A program made the translations under genes and the position numbers. A stretch of 46,138 nt of DNA from Minisyncoccota bacterium (GTDB taxonomy: Bacteria; Patescibacteriota; Minisyncoccia; Phycocordibacterales; UBA9973), in contig DASZSN010000028.1 of NCBI GenBank assembly GCA_035548655.1, positions 1 to 46,138 of the forward strand, given 5' to 3'. The notes under the pieces are model-generated. The model worked only from the letters and a program-made list of their open reading frames with translations, was not told where the DNA came from and did not search any database. This document shows positions 5,924-26,944 of the stretch, piece after piece (position 1 is the first letter of the stretch; each line of letters starts with the position of its first letter).

Positions 5924-6400
5924 TTATTTTCTATTTTTTAATATGTTGTCTACCATTTCGATTTCATCCGCGATACCATCGATGAGATCGTAGGTTTTCG
6001 CTTTTTCGGCAGTGACCCATGCAGAGTCGGTGGTATCTTCGTCGTGCATTACATCACCAGAAACATACGGTGCATAATAACTAAGCACGACAACCGGGAT
6101 CCCATCAGGACGAATGAATGCAAGATCGAGGAGGTACTCACACTTGCCTATTTCTACACCAACTTCTTCTTTTATTTCGCGACGAATGCCGTTCTCAAGC
6201 GCATTGTACCACTGCCCCGCCGCAGTCGTCGGCGGCAAGTTGATATAGTCGTCAGTTTCGAGATTTCCCCCTGGTACAGTCCATTTACCCGGAAATGCTT
6301 TTTCGCGCATAGAACGCTTGGTGATGAGATACTGCCCATTATCACGGTAGATGATGACAGTCATGGCGATGCGGTGGAGTTTTTTGTCTTTGATCTCCAT
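5924..6400 (-). CDS. Nudix hydrolase
   Basis: The Nudix box is GKWTVPGGNLETDD...ALENGIRREIKEEVGVEIG (Gx5Ex7REUxEExGU). Confidence 0.85.
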   Translation of the reverse strand: MEIKDKKLHRIAMTVIIYRDNGQYLITKRSMREKAFPGKWTVPGGNLETDDYINLPPTTAAGQWYNALENGIRREIKEEVGVEIGKCEYLLDLAFIRPDGIPVVVLSYYAPYVSGDVMHDEDTTDSAWVTAEKAKTYDLIDGIADEIEMVDNILKNRK

Positions 6401-18221: not shown

Positions 18222-18554
18222 AAAAGATTCTAGTTGTAAACGTTTCAAATGATTTCCAGATTTCCTAATAGGAATCGGGCAATTAGTACACCTCGGCTGA
18301 ACGTATTACTACGCGTACACCTGGTGCCTATCAACGTGATCATCTCTCACGACCCTCAACGATACCTTATCTTGAAGCTGGCTTCACGCTTAGATGCTTT
18401 CAGCGTTTATCCATGCCGAACATAGCTACTGGGCGGTCCGTCTGGCGACAGAGCCCATAGACCAGAGGTTCGTTCATTTCGGTCCTCTCGTACTAGAAAC
18501 GAATCTTCTCAAGTATCAACGCCTGCAGTAGATAGGAGACCAACCTGTCTTACG

Positions 18555-19349
18555 CTTCTTTTCACACATTGCTGTATGGAATGGACTATAACTTCACCCT
18601 CACTTCGTTCGGGAGTTATCAAGTTCATCAAGTTTGTAAAGTTACAAAGTAGAAACAAAGTGCCTCGTACTTGATAACCTGATAACTTGAAAACTTTCAA
18701 CTCACGCAAAGCGTGGGGCTCAACAGTTAGTCTCTACGGGTCTAAATTAAACAGCTTTCAATGCATTGTCTACAGATTCTATTTCTTCAGAAGTACCAAA
18801 AGTTTTTAGTTCTTCGTCAGTAATAAGTTCTCTGTTTTCTTTGAATATTTCAAGTTGTTTTCTAAGAGCTAGATCGTTGAAATCAGGCTTGCCAATCTGA
18901 TTGAGCATATCTTTAATTCTTTTAAAGTTTGCTTTCATCTTTTGCAATATTTCCTGTCGTTCATTTTGAACATTTTCACCTTCATGGCTCATAGTAGTTC
19001 CCTCGGAATTAACCCCTAATGCAACAAATATAGCATAGGATTGGTCTCTTCCGATATTAGTTGAGCATGTCATCTGTTGTCACCAACAGCGACCGCCGTA
19101 ATTGGATGGTTCTCTGTACCCGCCTCATCAGCGGATATATCTTTCAATCAAAATGACTTGAAATCATCTTGATTGTCTTCGACGAAAAGACTAAAACAGT
19201 AAACCTGTTTATAATTTTTTATACTCCTTGTTTATCTCTCGGGACTCAGACGGCAAGAAAGTCAAAAGTTATCAAGTTAAAAGTTATCAAGAAAATTGCA
19301 AACGCAACTAACTTTACAAACTTTCAACTTTCAACTTTATAACTAACTT
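18555..19349 (-). mobile_element. Group I intron in 23S rRNA at the position equivalent to E. coli ~2593, carrying an unrecognised ORF
   Basis: In rRNA sense the exon flanks read GCTGGGTTCAGACCGT | CGTAAGACAGGTTGGTC, while E. coli has GGGUUUAGAACGU-CGUGAGACAGUUCGGUC. The 5' exon ends in U and the intron ends in G. A group I R-like element GTAGAGACTAAC (18726-18737) and an S-like element GAAGTTATAGTCC (18583-18595) can form P7. The ORF ends just before R, as it does in the second intron. I could not place a convincing P1/IGS near the 5' end. Confidence 0.75.
18747..19073 (-). CDS. Intron-encoded hypothetical protein, 108 aa as listed or 81 aa from ATG 18992, with no recognisable homing-endonuclease motif
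   Basis: This is a long open frame in an AT-rich, stop-prone insert. A GAGGGA box lies 6 nt upstream of the internal ATG at 18992. The product MSHEGENVQNERQEILQKMKANFKRIKDMLNQIGKPDFNDLALRKQLEIFKENRELITDEELKTFGTSEEIESVDNALKAV is predicted helical and K/E-rich. It has no LAGLIDADG, GIY-YIG, HNH or His-Cys box motif. Confidence 0.5.
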   Translation of the reverse strand: MTCSTNIGRDQSYAIFVALGVNSEGTTMSHEGENVQNERQEILQKMKANFKRIKDMLNQIGKPDFNDLALRKQLEIFKENRELITDEELKTFGTSEEIESVDNALKAV

Positions 19350-19980
19350 ACGGTCTGAACCCAGCTCGCGTACCTTTTTAATTGGCGAACAGCCAAACCC
19401 TTGGGACCTTCTCCAGCCCCGGGATAAGGTGAGCCGACATCGAGGTGCCGAACTCCGCCGTCGCTATGGACGCTTAGGCGGAACTAGCCTGTTATCCCCG
19501 GAGTAGCTTCTATCCGTTAATCTTCGGCCGCATCTAATGCGGACCGTCGGTTCACTATGTTCTGCTTTCGCACCTGCTCGACATGGCCGTCTTACAGTCA
19601 AGCTCTCTTATGCCATTGCACTATCGGCACGGTTTCCATTCGCGCCTAGAGAACCTTTGAACTCCTCCGTTACTCTTTTGGAGGATACCGCCCCAGTAAA
19701 ACTACCCGCCAGGAACTGTCTCGGCGCGTTTTTGCCGCGCCGGTTAGGATATGCCCAAGTACAAAGAGGTATTTCACTGGCGACTCCATGAACCCCAAAA
19801 GGTTCACTTCAAAGTCTCCCTCCTATGCTACGTAGTACACGAACATACCCAATACCAAGCTGTAGTAAAGCTTCCGGGGTCTTTTCGTCTAACTGCAGGT
19901 AACCGGCATCTTCACCGGTATTGTATTTTCACCGAGCAAATCCCCGAGACAGTTTCCCAGTCATTACACCATTCGTGCGC

Positions 19981-20024
<44 letters not shown>

Positions 20025-20839
20025 CATTGCGTGGTAGCTTGTTCAAATGTGTACTGATGTGTGTCAATTATTTACCAAATATGTATTGTGTTAACTCTCT
20101 GTCGCCAGAGAGGTCGGACTATATCTTCACTTCTTCGACAGTCGACGTTCCAATTTCGTCTTGAAGTGTCTTGCGTATAGTCTCTGAGGATTTTTCTACT
20201 TTTTTATGACGTCTTTTAATGAATACTTTCTTTTTCTTCCTTTTCCTTCATTGAGTGTTTCTCGAAGTTTGAGAACTCCTTGTAATCCTGATGGACTAAG
20301 ATGTTCTTTGTTATACATTCGAACAACAATCTGTTTGAAAATTGAAAAATTTTTCTTTTTTCTTGCAGAAATGAAGTGAAATCGTTCGAAAAAAGGAATA
20401 ACTTTTTCATATAATGAAGTACTGTTAGTGACTTCATAATAGACTACTCCATCACTTCTCTCGCGAAGAGTGCCGCATCCAAAGATTTTTTTAATCCATG
20501 AAAGAATCACTCGATCTTTTTGAGAAATATTGAATGAAGCAGTAATTTTCCATTCTTCTTTGTAATCAATTCTTTTTTTGATGGAAAGGTTAAAACTTCC
20601 TTCTCCATCGGTAAAACCAGCAATATAATATCCATCTTTTGGATCTATATTTTTGAGCCAATTTTCCATTTTTTATTTAAGACAGTAGAAATCTTTCCTG
20701 CTGATTGTCTGCGTCTGTATATTGTCACTGCTTCATCGACGTGAAGTGAGTAATACAGAATACTTTTTTTCCACCAGAGGCGGACCAGAGTTTCCAGCAT
20801 ATAGCAAGATTTATTTGCGTAACTACAACGGTCATGTCT
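20025..20839 (-). mobile_element. Group I intron in the helix-69 loop of 23S rRNA (E. coli ~1917) carrying a LAGLIDADG ORF
   Basis: The exon flanks read GGCCGTAACTAT | AACGGTCCTAAGGTAGCG. P1 forms between exon CGTAACTAT (20840-20848) and the intron guide GTAGTTACG (20818-20826), with a U.G pair at the splice site. The R element CAGAGACTATA (20176-20186) and the S element AAGATATAGTCC (20116-20127) are the classical group I core. The terminal base is G at 20025. Confidence 0.88.
20196..20669 (-). CDS. LAGLIDADG homing endonuclease, single-motif (homodimer) type
   Basis: The motif YIAGFTDGEGSF lies near the N-terminus, the size is 157 aa, the tail is basic, and the ORF sits inside a group I intron. 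Confidence 0.92.
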   Translation of the reverse strand: MENWLKNIDPKDGYYIAGFTDGEGSFNLSIKKRIDYKEEWKITASFNISQKDRVILSWIKKIFGCGTLRERSDGVVYYEVTNSTSLYEKVIPFFERFHFISARKKKNFSIFKQIVVRMYNKEHLSPSGLQGVLKLRETLNEGKGRKRKYSLKDVIKK

Positions 20840-21015
20840 ATAGTTACGGCCGACATTCACCAGGGCTTGTAACAGTCAGCAATGCGGATTGCTCCGCATC
20901 ACCGCCGTTAGTTAACCTTCTGGCATCGGTCAGGTGTCACCCCCTATACATCCTCTTACGAGTTCGCAGGGAGCTGTGTTTTTGGTAAACAGTTGCCAGG
21001 AATACTTTCGCTGCG

Positions 21016-21113
21016 CCCCGCCCTCTTTCCCAACAAATACATCAGTTCTACGCGCTTAAGGTCATCAGACGATAAACGTTGTATTGATGTATTTGCGAGG
21101 ATAGAGGGCGGGG
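21016..21113 (-). repeat. Hairpin insertion element, copy A, in 23S domain IV region (partner copy B at 23034-23116)
   Basis: ccccgccctctTtcccaacaaataCa...tatttgcgaggatagagggcgggg has a base stem CCCCGCCCTCT/AGAGGGCGGGG. It replaces a helix that I recall as roughly half this length in E. coli. Confidence 0.7.
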
Positions 21114-21656
21114 AAGCCTTATACCGAGGGTACGGCTGCTTGTTTGCCGAGTTCCTTGGGGATCTCTCACTCGTTCGCCTTGGTCTTCTCGACCTGATCA
21201 CCTGTGTCGGTTTGCGGTACGGGCTCTCTCATACTGGCTTTAGAAGTTTTTCTCGGAAGCGTGCTCACATGACTTCATCGTGGCGTACCACAACTTCGAC
21301 GCGTCACTGACAGTTCACATTAAAGTGAGGAAAACGGATTTACCTGCCTTCCCTGCTCGAGACACGCACCACAATCCAATAAGTGGCTCATGCTACTACA
21401 CTTCGTCGCTCCATCAAATATGAAAGGGGTGATGGAATATTAACCATCTGTCCATCGGTTACGGCGTTTGCCATTACCTTAGGCCCCGACTAACCCTGGG
21501 ATGATTGCCATTGCCCAGGAAACCTTGATCTTTCGGCGGGAGGGAATTGCACCCTCCTTGCGGTTACTTGTGCCAACATTCTTACTTCCACACGCTCCAG
21601 CATGGCTCACGCCTTTGCCTTCACAGCAAGAGTGGAATACTCTCCTACCGCTTGTG

Positions 21657-21806
21657 AATTTCATAAAGGAGAGAAGTTTCCTTCTCAATATATTTGGTAC
21701 CTGCACCTATGCAAGCATGACACATCGTTACTGTTATTTATCCAGTGTCAGCTGCATAGTGCAGGTAAAAGGAACAAGTCTGCTTTATTTTGTTCCTTTA
21801 TGAAAT
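21657..21806 (-). other. ~150-nt insertion in 23S helix 45 (a classical IVS site)
   Basis: The helix-45 stem gcttgtg...ccgcaagc is extended by aatttcataaagga...tcctttatgaaat, which encloses three internal hairpins (gagaag/cttctc, cctgcac.tatgca/tgcatagtgcagg, ggaacaa/ttgttcc). Confidence 0.6.
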
Positions 21807-22427
21807 CCGCAAGCCCTCAGTTTCGGTAATATACTTAGCCCCGATTATCTGCGGCGCGAGATCTCTCGATGAGTGAGCTGTTACGCTTTCTTTAAAAGAT
21901 GGCTGCTTCTAAGCCAACTTCCTCATTGTCGGAGAAATCTCACCTCCTTAAGACGCACTTAGTATATATTTAGGGACCTTAACTTGAGATCTGGGCTGTT
22001 TCCCTTTTGTCTGACGGAGCTTAGCCCCCGTAGACTAACTGCTATGTTATAACGCTTGGTATTCGGAGTTTGATAGGTGTAGCGAGATTGCTCCCTGTCT
22101 AAACCTTCCAGTGCTCTACCCCCAAGAGGATCACATAACGCTAACCCTAAAGCTATTTCGGAGAGAACCAGCTATTACCAGGTTCGATAAGCTTTTCACT
22201 CCAACCCACAAGTCATCCGAATGCGTTGTACGACATACCGGTTCGGGCCTCCAGAGATCTTTCGAACTCCTTCACCCTGCTCATGGGTAGCTCACCTGGC
22301 TTCGGGTCTTATGCATACTACTAAACGCGCTATTCACGCTCGGTTTCCCTACGGCTTTGCGGTTGCCCGCTTTGCCTTGCAGCATACATAAACTCGTTGG
22401 CTCATTCTTCAATAGGCACGCCGTGAC

Positions 22428-22563
22428 GGACATCACGCAATGCGCAATGCCAAGTACCAAGTCAAAAGTCATCGCGTTGAAAGTGAGTCGAAAATAATCG
22501 CACTCTCTATATAACGTGACAACTTGAAAACTTGAGACTTGCATCACACCCTGTGTGATGCCC
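22428..22563 (-). other. ~130-nt insertion in 23S helix 25 (a classical IVS site) containing AAGT/CAAG-unit repeats
   Basis: The flanks GGCACGCCGTGAC...GCTCCGACTCCTTGTAAGC correspond to E. coli GGTACGCAGTCAC...GCTCCCACTGCTTGTACG. The insert carries acaacttgaaaacttgagactt and the hairpin gcatcacaccctgtgtgatgc. Confidence 0.55.
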
Positions 22564-22617
22564 GCTCCGACTCCTTGTAAGCATATGGTTTCAGTTCTAT
22601 TTCACCCTCCTTTCGGA

Positions 22618-22660
<43 letters not shown>

Positions 22661-22870
22661 TTTACCTTGTATGTAGCCTTACCAGTTAGTTCTGGCAGAT
22701 TCCTCCCGGCTATTCGTGTCCGGAAGTACTCAAGAAAAACGACAGAAAAGGAAATTGCATTTCAAGTACGGGATTATCACCCTCTATGATGGTGGTTTCC
22801 AACACCTTCCTCTATACAATTTCTTTGTAACTTTTCTCAATAAATTGACGTCGTCCTCTTACAACCCCCA

Positions 22871-22986
22871 AGCATCACGCAAAGCGTGATAATAACCAAT
22901 CATCAAGCACCACTAACCAAACGAGTCGCGCTCGTTGATTATTGATTATTGAAATTTGATTATTGCATCACGCTCTCTGTGATGCT
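22871..22986 (-). other. ~115-nt insertion in 23S domain I forming a long A-U/G.U helix
   Basis: The terminal hairpins are gcatcacgcaaagcgtgat and gcatcacgctctctgtgatgc. The arms aataaccaatcatcaagcaccactaaccaaacgag and ctcgttgattattgattattgaaatttgattatt pair well only in the rRNA-sense strand, where C/A mismatches on the + strand become G.U pairs. Confidence 0.5.
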
Positions 22987-23033
22987 CAGGTTTGGGCTTC
23001 TCCTCTTTCGCTCGCCGCTACTTAAGGAATGTG

Positions 23034-23116
23034 CCCCGCCCTCTGTCCCAACAAATAAACCATTGAATGTACATAGAAATAGTATCAACGATTTATTTAC
23101 GGAGAGAGAGGGCGGG
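23034..23116 (-). repeat. Hairpin insertion element, copy B, in 23S domain I (partner copy A at 21016-21113)
   Basis: ccccgccctctGtcccaacaaataAa...tttatttacggagagagagggcggg is inserted between CGCCGCTACTTAAGGAAT and TTGTTTTCTTTTCCTCC. The first 26 nt match copy A at 24 of 26 positions, and the closing stem is the same. Confidence 0.7.
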
Positions 23117-23559
23117 ACATTGTTTTCTTTTCCTCCAGGTACTGAGATGTTTCACTTCCCTGGGTTCGCACCACACCCCACTTATGTGGGTGGGTCATCG
23201 AGGTTTGCTCGATGGAGTTTCCTCATTCGGACATCTCCGGATCAAAGGTTGTTAGGCACCTCCCCGAAGCGTATCGCCGCCTCCCGCGTCCTTCATCGCC
23301 ATGTAAAGCCAAGGCATCCGCCATATGCTCTTATTTAAATTTCCTATTAGGAAATCTAGAAATCATTTTCATCCTCTCACTCAGATTTTGAGCGAGAGGG
23401 TAAGCCGCTCATTTATCACCGCTGACAAACGATCGGCTCTTCTCTGCCTCTCCTACCTGCAATCCCACCGGGTGGCGAGATTTCTTGAACGCTGGCGCAT
23501 TCAACAATACGAAGGGCAGCATATAGTTTTCAAAAAACACCTATTGATTGATCTGGACG

Positions 23560-26836: not shown

Positions 26837-26944
26837 TATAGTTAGTTATCAAGTTTATAAAGTTTATACAGTTTATAAAGTAAAAGTCACCAATACTACG
26901 TGTGTTAGCTTGATAACTTGATGAACTTTACAAACTTTCAACTT
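26837..26944 (-). repeat. AAGTT-unit repeat module occupying the last 108 nt of the rplJ 5' leader
   Basis: Tandem 9-mers are aagtttata (26851-26859), aagtttata (26860-26868), cagtttata (26869-26877) and aagtaaaag (26878-26886). The inverted repeat agttatcaag (26842-26851) pairs with cttgataact (26909-26918). The 21-mer aactttacaaactttcaactt (26924-26944) is identical to 19310-19330 inside the 23S intron. Confidence 0.7.

Follow-up and report, generated by a model that had tools for sequence, protein, structure and literature searches.

[quoted passage not shown] Its length and ends were confirmed. The exon junctions were read directly from the sequence (...GGGUUCAGACCGU, intron, CGUAAGACAGG...), the first intron base being A 19349 and the last the terminal omega-G at 18555, in the 3′ end ...AAAAGAAG. 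The junction aligned as ACCGU/CGUAAGACAG in the window and AACGU/CGUGAGACAG in E. coli. This places the insertion after what we take, in E. coli numbering, to be 23S U2593, between U2593 and C2594, at the I-CreI (L2593) site. Position 2593 is a recurrent insertion site in the 23S rRNA of CPR bacteria (Tsurumaki et al. 2024, PMC11270868), and 85 further introns were collected at the U2593/C2594 junction. The 3′ exon (18290..18554, lower coordinate approximate) was identified from its sequence, which contains the sarcin-ricin loop AGUACGAGAGGACC. It was left out of the Rfam LSU match, which stopped at 19289.

Every conserved block of the P3-P9 core was present, including the P3/P7 pseudoknot. 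The internal guide sequence UUACG/GCGGUC (19091..19101) was recognised from sequence and covariation. Its GCGGUC half (19096-19091) paired with the 5′ exon GACCGU as P1, with a U.G pair at the 5′ splice site, and its UUACG half (19101-19097) paired with the 3′ exon CGUAA as P10. P10 covaried in 72 of 75 introns (CGTGAG with xCACG in 60 of 63, CGTAAG with xTACG in 12 of 12). In an alignment of 20 short family members, 96% of cells were paired and 30 of the 50 pairs showed compensatory changes, with slid controls at 32-42%. The Rfam model for group I introns (RF00028, Intron_gpI) aligned to P7-P9 only and scored 29.6 bits, under its gathering score of 50. The model could not span the 257-nt insert in L6 or the insert of about 250 nt in L1, and the shortfall is not decisive against the assignment. 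The intron is an ordinary member of the CPR/Patescibacteria group I intron family at 23S position 2593.

The core was assigned manually against the conserved family blocks. Its 5′ half (19000..19066) overlapped codons 3-25 of the longest reading of the open reading frame described below. It comprised the P3 5′ strand GCUCAAC (19066-19060), P4 UCGGAA (19054-19049) followed by P5, P4′ UUCCGA (19008-19003) and the P6 5′ strand GGG (19002-19000), and P3, P4, P5 and P6 were supported by family covariation. Beyond L6, the stretch from the P6 3′ strand to the P3 3′ strand (18718..18740) held CCC (18740-18738), J6/7, the P7 5′ strand GACUA (18732-18728) and the P3 3′ strand GUUGAGC (18724-18718), the last a perfect 7-bp complement of 19066-19060. 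P7 and P3 covaried across the family. The 3′ end (18555..18588) consisted of the P7 3′ strand UAGUC (18588-18584), a P9 hairpin with a GCAA loop (18578-18563) and a tail to omega-G; P7 and P9 were supported by family covariation and by the partial Rfam alignment.

Several peripheral elements were also recognised. The P1 loop held a 5′ hairpin (19255..19349), seen in the minimum free energy (MFE) fold and in tandem and inverted repeats, and made of short AAGUUGA and CUUGAUAAC units; equivalent repeat hairpins were present in four sister introns (L017, L024, L090 and L126). The same repeat motifs recurred in P8, which carried a large insertion (18597..18717). The E1 element GCCGUCUGAGUCC (19242..19254) was the complement of the last 13 nt of the 5′ exon. 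Across the family (R)UCUGAAYCC was conserved in E1, and a C-to-T variant of the exon covaried with a G-to-A change in E1 in 6 of 6 cases. A P2 hairpin, CUGUUG-GUGA-CAACAG (19074..19089), was supported by compensatory changes in seven of the nine family P2 pairs. A search for an internal promoter or terminator gave nothing above chance. In site, P1-P10 core fold and the use of L6 as a cargo slot, the intron resembled the CPR introns at position 2593 (PMC11270868) and the Chlamydomonas Cr.LSU / I-CreI intron. It differed from both in the roughly 250 nt inside its P1 loop, in its repeat-laden P8 and in a cargo unrelated to a LAGLIDADG gene.

The open reading frame in L6 and its predicted product

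L6 contained an insert of 257 nt (18741..18997; 43% A) that was weakly structured (MFE per nt -0.18, z -1.8). We regard L6 as a peripheral loop bearing what appears to be a lineage-specific A-rich insert. Within the family L6 length varied continuously from 9 to 479 nt, and the core blocks CCGAGGGAA...CCCGUAGAGACUA bracketed it. The listed open reading frame (18747..19073) encoded 108 aa, and an internal ATG at 18992 gave a form of 81 codons plus a stop (18747..18992; TAA 18749-18747). This shorter ORF filled L6, the slot that the first-pass annotation had likened to that of the LAGLIDADG ORF in the other intron of the window (L1917, 20839..20025), and the comparison was borne out. So was its placing of the ORF end close to R/P7, the stop ending 9 nt before GUAGAGACUA (R/P7) and 6 nt before the P6 3′ strand CCC.

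The 108-aa form exists as a frame. However, its first 27 codons (18993..19073) are the conserved P3-P4-P5-P4′-P6 core read in frame, and this extension was predicted to be disordered (pLDDT 43-47). Its ATG at 19073 lay within a J2/3 stretch, (G/A)UGACAUGCUCAAC, common to the window intron and its metagenome relatives L126-L129, while L115 had only AUGCUCAAC of this stretch. The likely coding unit, if there is one, is 18747..18992. The GAGGGA noted earlier before ATG 18992 is no evidence of a ribosome-binding site. It turned out to be part of the invariant ribozyme core CCGAGGGAA (P4′/P6), which every one of the 63 signature-matching family members had, whether or not it carried an ORF. The 24 host genes, the LAGLIDADG gene and both starts of the ORF were inspected by eye, and upstream of the genes no motif resembling a Shine-Dalgarno sequence was seen. 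Since the host genes checked lacked one, AUG 18992 would not need one either. The ORF may be, or may once have been, translated from the excised intron or from pre-rRNA, starting at AUG 18992. This start codon, 7 nt beyond the P6 5′ strand, adjoins structured core RNA, and initiation there would compete with P4-P6 folding.

As noted at first, the 81-aa form lacks Cys, the sole Cys lying in the 27-residue extension, and contains a single His (residue 3), and the product was predicted to be all-helical. A single-sequence AlphaFold2 model of the 81-aa form had four helices and no strands (pLDDT 87, pTM 0.70), though such confidence for a helix-prone, K/E-rich sequence is weak evidence for a real protein. 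Amphipathicity was rejected as protein-level evidence, being marginal (p ~0.06). Tryptic peptides of the product would include ANFK and DMLNQIGKPDFNDLALR.

The LAGLIDADG, GIY-YIG, HNH, His-Cys and PD-(D/E)xK motifs reported missing at first reading were also absent from searches of Pfam, NCBIfam, PHROGs, the PDB, Foldseek and a profile of sister genes. For LAGLIDADG (PF00961 and relatives) there was no Pfam match at E = 10 and the model was all-helical, and no family of GIY-YIG, HNH, His-Cys box, PD-(D/E)xK or EDxHD nucleases was matched in Pfam, NCBIfam or PHROG. Kinship with the window's own LAGLIDADG protein was rejected (BLASTP E = 2). Foldseek against the PDB and BFVD gave a best match of E = 1.3, and the PDB matches were generic or designed helical bundles only. 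We conclude that the product is not a nuclease.

Two phage leads were rejected. The product shares a short amphipathic-helix motif, KRIKDMLNQIGKP, with phage lambda CIII (PF02061 / phrog_550; PHROG E = 1.9e-4, Pfam E = 0.032), but its Pfam score was 14.7 bits against a cutoff of 25.7, an unrelated PHROG scored equally and tblastn found no match to a phage cIII gene. The PHROG match was marginal against nine shuffled controls, which reached E = 0.008; the E-values therefore seem too favourable, perhaps about tenfold. A PHROG match to a Staphylococcus Kayvirus primase was marginal against shuffled controls and fell in the C-terminal tail of a primase of ordinary type (355 aa; tblastn E = 0.04) rather than in an intron ORF. 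In being a small all-helical protein encoded within a 23S rRNA insertion, the product resembles 23S_rRNA_IVP (PF05635). However, 23S_rRNA_IVP proteins are encoded in intervening sequences excised by RNase III and not in group I introns, and the family was not matched in Pfam at E = 10 and was absent from 43 Foldseek PDB matches. 23S_rRNA_IVP has been reported in CPR insertions (Tsurumaki et al., PMC11270868).

Searches for relatives returned the sequence itself alone among 5.8 billion protein clusters and, among 1.84 billion representatives, itself and two repeat proteins. The latter, an F-box/leucine-rich-repeat protein (P0002) and a tandem-repeat surface protein (P0003), owed their scores to summing over seven repeats, which does not indicate homology. 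No relative of the ORF was found in three contig collections (genome, metagenome and viral), and the viral contigs held neither such a relative nor the long-L6 form of the intron. The nearest intron relatives (75-80% core identity) had L6 inserts of 23-96 nt without the ORF insert. Under the refuting condition set at first reading, the suggestion of a conserved intron-associated factor was not upheld, as no relative was present in 89 other introns at the site or in the databases. Copies of the intron were found in seven runs, which belonged to four studies, one of soil, two of the rhizosphere and one of freshwater sediment. Two runs held complete identical intron contigs, and in five more, identical fragments bridged from the ORF into the core at either end. 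Identical copies in independent runs show that the intron sequence is not an assembly artefact. There were no sequence variants among the copies, and hence no sign of purifying selection. None of the RNA runs held the sequence. Synteny did not lead to orthologous rRNA operons either, as the flanking 259-aa protein had no relative above 64% identity and the Logan contigs broke at the rRNA.

An I-CreI-type LAGLIDADG gene was present in 12 of the 90 site-2593 introns examined, the window included. These sister L6 genes (147-206 aa, about twice the length of the 81-aa product) were relatives of I-CreI, I-MsoI and I-CvuI, with E-values down to 1e-42 for single-domain forms and about 1e-69 for engineered single-chain forms. 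It is possible, if doubtful, that the insert is a relic without present function: a former cargo gene that has eroded or was of an unrecognised type, or coding DNA captured in break repair. The insert occupies the endonuclease slot, and its frame reads CCC GUA GAG ACU as P-V-E-T, exactly like sister LAGLIDADG genes ending in ...PVET. The graded length of L6 and the ORF-less state of the nearest relatives recall the cycle of endonuclease gain, decay and loss among sister introns without ORFs or with degenerate ones, and degenerate ORFs with large deletions have been reported in CPR rRNA insertions (Tsurumaki et al., PMC11270868). Residues 56-79 also resembled the C-terminal tail of a NUDIX protein in the window (13 of 28 identical; 0 of 400 shuffles reached the score against the window), but this likeness spans one third of the ORF at about 65% DNA identity, and had the insert been captured from a conserved gene, the protein searches should have led to that source. 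No similarity was seen to Pfam, NCBIfam or PDB families, and a six-frame scan for a remnant of the sister I-CreI-like genes found none in any frame. A truncated known endonuclease, which the first-pass annotation had held open, scored 0.9 bits against the profile of the 12 sister genes, and 675 of 2000 shuffles did as well. An apparent likeness to the C-terminal helices of I-CreI-type proteins was rejected at an hhalign probability of 0.3%. In addition, a relic under no selection should have gained stops over 81 A/T-rich codons.

Coding-like statistics of the L6 frame

The L6 insert could instead be an untranslated A-rich spacer that is stop-free in one frame by luck, which we consider unlikely. 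Such an origin would be in keeping with the lack of any homologue, variation or expression data for the ORF, and a selection bias is present, as the window was picked at first reading for having an ORF. The argument made then, that an open frame of more than 100 codons is unlikely to arise by chance, does not hold when the whole intron is considered. Of its dinucleotide shuffles, 6.5% contained an open frame of 110 codons or more, and 0.8% an ATG-initiated ORF of 108 codons or more. Obvious chance ORFs of 83-110 codons were found in sister introns, some of them antisense to the ribozyme, and ORFs of at least 81 codons occurred in about 8% of the ORF-less ones. Since chance ORFs in sister introns reach 110 codons, ORF length alone is weak evidence.

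The argument does hold within L6. The insert had no stops in the ORF frame, against 7 and 10 in the other two sense frames, and dinucleotide shuffles of L6 were equally open in a sense frame in 0.17% of cases (p ~0.002) and in any of six frames in 3.1%. Off-frame stop density was 0.09-0.12 per codon, as in real genes and unlike stop-poor sequence. Codon-position chi-square was 28.5 (p = 8e-5), a value matched by 0.3% of those shuffles that stayed open. A tandem-repeat origin of this periodicity was rejected because there was no repeat inside the ORF and the 3-base periodicity was spread across lags. A model trained on endonuclease genes of introns gave an in-frame codon log-odds of +0.16 bits per codon, inside the range of real endonuclease genes (0.005-0.22), whereas 41 of 42 chance ORFs scored 0.006 or less. 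Under a host-gene model, frame discrimination was 0.89, above all 42 chance ORFs. Finally, among 20 long L6 inserts this one had the least structure, the other 19 having z of -3.8 to -9.5. The other inserts of intermediate length folded strongly into hairpins and had stops in every frame, whereas this one lacked structure, was open throughout one frame and showed codon bias.

Cargo of the intron

The best explanation, to which we give a probability of roughly 45%, is an orphan coding sequence restricted to this lineage and encoding a small acidic protein of four helices, a passenger gene in the endonuclease slot that does not code for a nuclease. Such a passenger gene would most likely be genuine but young or fast-evolving. 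The first-pass annotation had proposed a maturase, an RNA chaperone or a protein that binds repeats. A role specific to this intron, in aiding its folding, could be favoured by the position of the ORF in cis, the basic patch KMKANFKRIK on its first helix and the large repeat-rich additions in L1 and P8, which might need folding help; we consider it very improbable, as the product has a net charge of -4 (13 K+R against 17 D+E), is not LAGLIDADG-derived, unlike known group I maturases, and matches no nucleic-acid-binding fold, and as the four sister introns with similar repeat hairpins have no such ORF. The product is probably not a splicing cofactor, and splicing would be carried out by the RNA core alone.

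To our knowledge, group I introns carry almost only homing endonucleases or maturase derivatives. If the endonuclease slot did yield a translated protein other than a nuclease, this would be intron cargo of a new kind and possibly a case of gene birth in a ribozyme loop. The CPR survey annotated only ORFs with Pfam domains, and domain-less cargo was thus outside its scope (Tsurumaki et al., PMC11270868). From one sequence without relatives the case for new cargo cannot be made now, and the narrower practical value of the analysis is a validated structural map of the 2593 intron family.

The sister intron L087 encoded a second orphan in L6, a 62-aa ORF with gene-like codon statistics and unrelated to the 81-aa ORF. 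These are the two orphans so far, and both lie in the frame that reads the P6′/P7 core as P-V-E-T. A tRNA-like sequence considered in the L6 of intron L067 was rejected, as ARAGORN found none. It is conceivable, though we regard it as a long shot, that L6 of CPR rRNA group I introns is where small, helical, lineage-specific proteins other than endonucleases have their cradle or landing pad. If so, the orphans of L6 would represent either genes that arose de novo in a ribozyme loop where they are tolerated, or a new class of intron cargo with an action on the host.

The intron at 23S site 2593 and its family

A 23S-5S rRNA operon lies on the minus strand of the window, its 23S gene split by two insertions. 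The downstream insertion follows the 5′ exon ...GGGUUCAGACCGU, is 795 nt long (19349..18555, minus strand, last base G) and gives way to the 3′ exon CGUAAGACAGGUUGGUC..., which continues through the sarcin-ricin loop. We take its position to be after U2593, the I-CreI site, with E. coli AACGU followed by CGUGAGACAG as the reference. The Rfam group I model scored 29.6 bits on this intron, under the gathering score of 50, and aligned to P7-P9 alone. Therefore, the group I case was built by comparison among introns. In a scan of 185,579 species genomes for the 5′ junction with non-exon bases after it, at least 119 loci were detected, and the intron was delimited in 85 of those listed. Metagenome contigs were scanned with the P3-P4 block common to the window intron and L115, one of the sister introns, which added four further close relatives, L126-L129.

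The strict signature ACGGCGG ... CCGAGGGAA ... CCCGUAGAGACU was matched by 63 of 90 introns (window included; junction loci being the matches listed). When 20 short members were aligned on the proposed structure (P10 and P2-P9, P7 pseudoknot included), 96% of cells were paired and compensatory changes occurred in 30 of the 50 pairs (slid controls, 32-42%). In the guide sequence at 19101-19091, UUACG pairs with the 3′ exon and the adjoining GCGGUC with the 5′ exon, placing a U.G pair at the splice site. The 3′-exon pairing covaries in the family: CGUGAG exons occur with xCACG (60/63) and CGUAAG exons with xUACG (12/12). The window intron has every core block. The junction, guide pairing, core blocks and covariation thus uphold the first-pass annotation of a group I intron at the I-CreI-type site, and the intron is a member of an already described class. 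Tsurumaki et al. 2024 (PMC11270868) count site 2593 as one of the recurrent 23S insertion sites in CPR, which mostly have LAGLIDADG_1 genes or lack an ORF.

Among the matches listed, the nearest introns were L127, L129, L128, L126 and L115, 75-80% identical over core segments, with L6 inserts of 23-96 nt that hold no ORF; no closer relative was found in the collections among these matches. The best match of the flanking protein was 64% identical. The second 23S intron, after U1917 (20025-20839, minus strand, 815 nt), encodes a 157 aa LAGLIDADG_1 protein (20196-20669, minus strand, Pfam 2.5e-21).

Several further features of the locus were recorded. The Rfam bacterial LSU match (19289-23344) ends at 19289 yet purports to span the full model, and leaves out the true 3′ exon beyond the intron (18290-18554, about 265 nt, with the sarcin-ricin loop). 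Automatic annotation would cut the 23S gene short. Compared with the bacterial model, the 23S gene is also enlarged by several large non-intron expansions at about 22400-23200, minus strand; near model positions 224, 282 and 583 these measure about 92 nt, about 108 nt and more than 150 nt. A second exon-binding element, E1 (GCCGUCUGAGUCC, 19242-19254, minus strand), precedes the canonical guide sequence by about 150 nt and is complementary to the final 13 nt of the 5′ exon (19350-19362). Its conserved family form is UCUGAAYCC, replaced by UCUAAAYCC in all six introns with GGGUUU for GGGUUC in the exon. E1 would be either a competitor of P1 or its partner in a pseudoknot. The element UUAGUCUUUUCG in the P1-loop domain (19183-19194), with identical or near-identical copies in L115 and L126-L129, is complementary at 10 of 12 positions to the R/P7 5′ strand CGUAGAGACUAA (18727-18738, minus strand), which makes it a potential competitor of the P7 3′ strand. 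The window has 11 copies of the short motif AACTTGATAACTT and 5 of AAGTTGAAAGTT (1.2 and 0.4 expected), in the P8 insert (18613-18703), the 5′ hairpin (19258-19345), another 23S expansion segment (22513-22533) and an intergenic region (26843-26944) upstream of the gene for ribosomal protein L10 (26345-26836). The hairpins of other family introns are built from different short repeats.

Position and predicted product of the L6 reading frame

The 81-codon ORF (ATG at 18992, minus strand) starts 5 nt into L6, the loop closed by P6, and 7 nt past the P6 5′ strand GGG; it stops 6 nt 5′ of the P6 3′ strand. The corresponding position holds an I-CreI, I-MsoI or I-CvuI homologue in 12 of the 90 introns (junction loci being the matches listed), with E-values as low as 1e-42 for single-domain PDB chains and about 1e-69 for engineered single-chain forms. 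The ORF is thus in the endonuclease slot, as had been proposed, and the LAGLIDADG_1 gene of the U1917 intron likewise ends about 10 nt 5′ of its R element. The GAGGGA before the ATG, noted earlier, is part of the invariant core CCGAGGGAA (P4′/P6), present with or without a following ORF. The 25 nt before 24 host genes, the LAGLIDADG gene and both ORF starts were inspected by eye; the genes showed no Shine-Dalgarno-like motif, and initiation in this host is probably independent of SD pairing. GAGGGA is for both reasons no evidence of translation. Several of the host genes have A/T-rich leaders.

A 108-aa reading had been suggested as well. It starts at an AUG (19073) in the J2/3 stretch (G/A)UGACAUGCUCAAC, common to the window intron and L126-L129, and past that AUG it is translated P3-P4-P5-P4′-P6. 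AlphaFold2 left this extension disordered (pLDDT 43-47), the other 81 residues keeping the same four helices, and on these models the translated form, if any, would be the 81-aa one.

Word-indexed search of 5.8 billion clusters recovered only the ORF protein itself, on one contig. Exhaustive phmmer against 1.84 billion representatives detected no relative; two additional repeat proteins had scores that were sums over seven repeats. No match came from peptide-pattern scans of the contig collections (genome, metagenome and viral), and tblastn against the 119 junction loci listed gave a best E of 0.26. No significant match was found in Pfam, NCBIfam or PDB sequences, and Foldseek against PDB and BFVD reached E = 1.3 at best, and its PDB matches were helical bundles, either generic or designed. 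Two matches in PHROG (E about 1e-4) covered overlapping residues but came from unrelated families, one being the tail of an ordinary phage primase, and they improved on the best of nine shuffled controls by a factor of only 50-100. We regard them as noise or, at most, a common amphipathic-helix pattern. The reported lack of a homing-endonuclease signature was therefore confirmed. The predicted product is not a nuclease, since it has no such motif, is all-helical, contains a single His but lacks Cys, and reaches only about half the length of the endonucleases in sister introns. A direct test of the ORF as a truncated I-CreI-type gene was negative, and this was one of the outcomes that the first-pass annotation had named as fatal to its claim of an intron-associated factor. 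Another, a lack of homologues in related introns, is what was found, and a conserved intron-associated factor is on that ground not supported.

The exact sequence was present in seven runs, which belong to four studies (one of soil, two of rhizosphere and one of freshwater sediment), and all copies are identical. This confirms the assembly but leaves zero substitutions for a selection test. It was found in none of the RNA runs.

Coding signal and competing explanations

Within L6 the ORF frame has no stops, against 7 and 10 in the other two sense frames. Base composition varies by codon position (chi-square 28.5), position 1 being G-enriched and T-depleted, and only 0.3% of the L6 shuffles that stay open reach this value; no tandem repeat was found as a source of the periodicity. 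Under a codon model trained on 13 intron endonuclease genes, the in-frame score of the ORF was +0.16 bits per codon and its off-frame scores were -0.43 and -0.73. The range for real endonuclease genes, each left out of training, was 0.005-0.22, and 41 of 42 chance ORFs gave at most 0.006. With a host-gene codon model its frame discrimination (0.89) was above all 42 chance ORFs. With a z of -1.8 (versus -3.8 to -9.5), the L6 RNA was the least structured of 20 long L6 inserts, and it was also the richest in A; the remaining non-coding inserts form tight hairpins. Considered jointly, stops, codon-position bias, codon models and weak L6 structure show a sequence that behaves as coding DNA does. 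We tentatively favour, at roughly 45%, a genuine orphan protein-coding passenger with no assigned function.

A non-functional relic or captured fragment of coding DNA is possible, if unlikely. The ORF uses the frame that yields P-V-E-T from the P6′/P7 core in sister endonuclease genes. Its final third is similar to the C-terminal tail of a NUDIX protein in the window, with a score unmatched by 400 shuffled queries, although DNA identity is only about 65%. The similarity joins 5936-6016 (minus strand) to 18756-18827 (ORF residues 56-79, 13/28 identical), and both segments end 2-3 codons before the stop.

A pure chance frame is a little less likely again. Open frames of at least 110 codons arose in 6.5% of dinucleotide shuffles of the whole intron, and ORF-less sister introns hold meaningless ORFs of 83-110 codons, several antisense; ORF length by itself is weak evidence. 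The earlier argument that over 100 codons would hardly arise by chance fails on these shuffles and stands for L6, where only 0.17% of shuffles were equally open in a sense frame. A maturase or chaperone, a functional variant that we judged separately, is improbable, since the net charge of -4 argues against a maturase or nucleic-acid-binding role.

Orphan frames in the L6 loop

L6 in this family is most likely a tolerated insertion point, cycling between endonuclease genes, hairpin extensions and near-absence. The window L6 contains a lineage-specific insert with gene-like statistics and a confidently predicted small helical fold, without relatives. A second orphan ORF (62 aa, intron positions 196-384) lies inside the 296-nt L6 of L087, a sister intron from MAG Patescibacteria STB_78 (JAQTVB010000026.1). 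Unrelated to the window ORF, it is all-helix-looking, is in the same P-V-E-T frame, had no Pfam match or homologue, and, the window ORF aside, showed higher codon periodicity and codon log-odds than any other ORF that does not encode an endonuclease. Together the two hint at a pattern of orphan ORFs in L6, which two cases do not establish. The finding is of modest interest now and would gain if divergent copies or peptides were found. Since the published CPR survey kept only ORFs with Pfam domains (Tsurumaki et al. 2024, PMC11270868), this variant of a described intron class, whose endonuclease slot carries an ORF of another kind, lay outside the reach of that survey.
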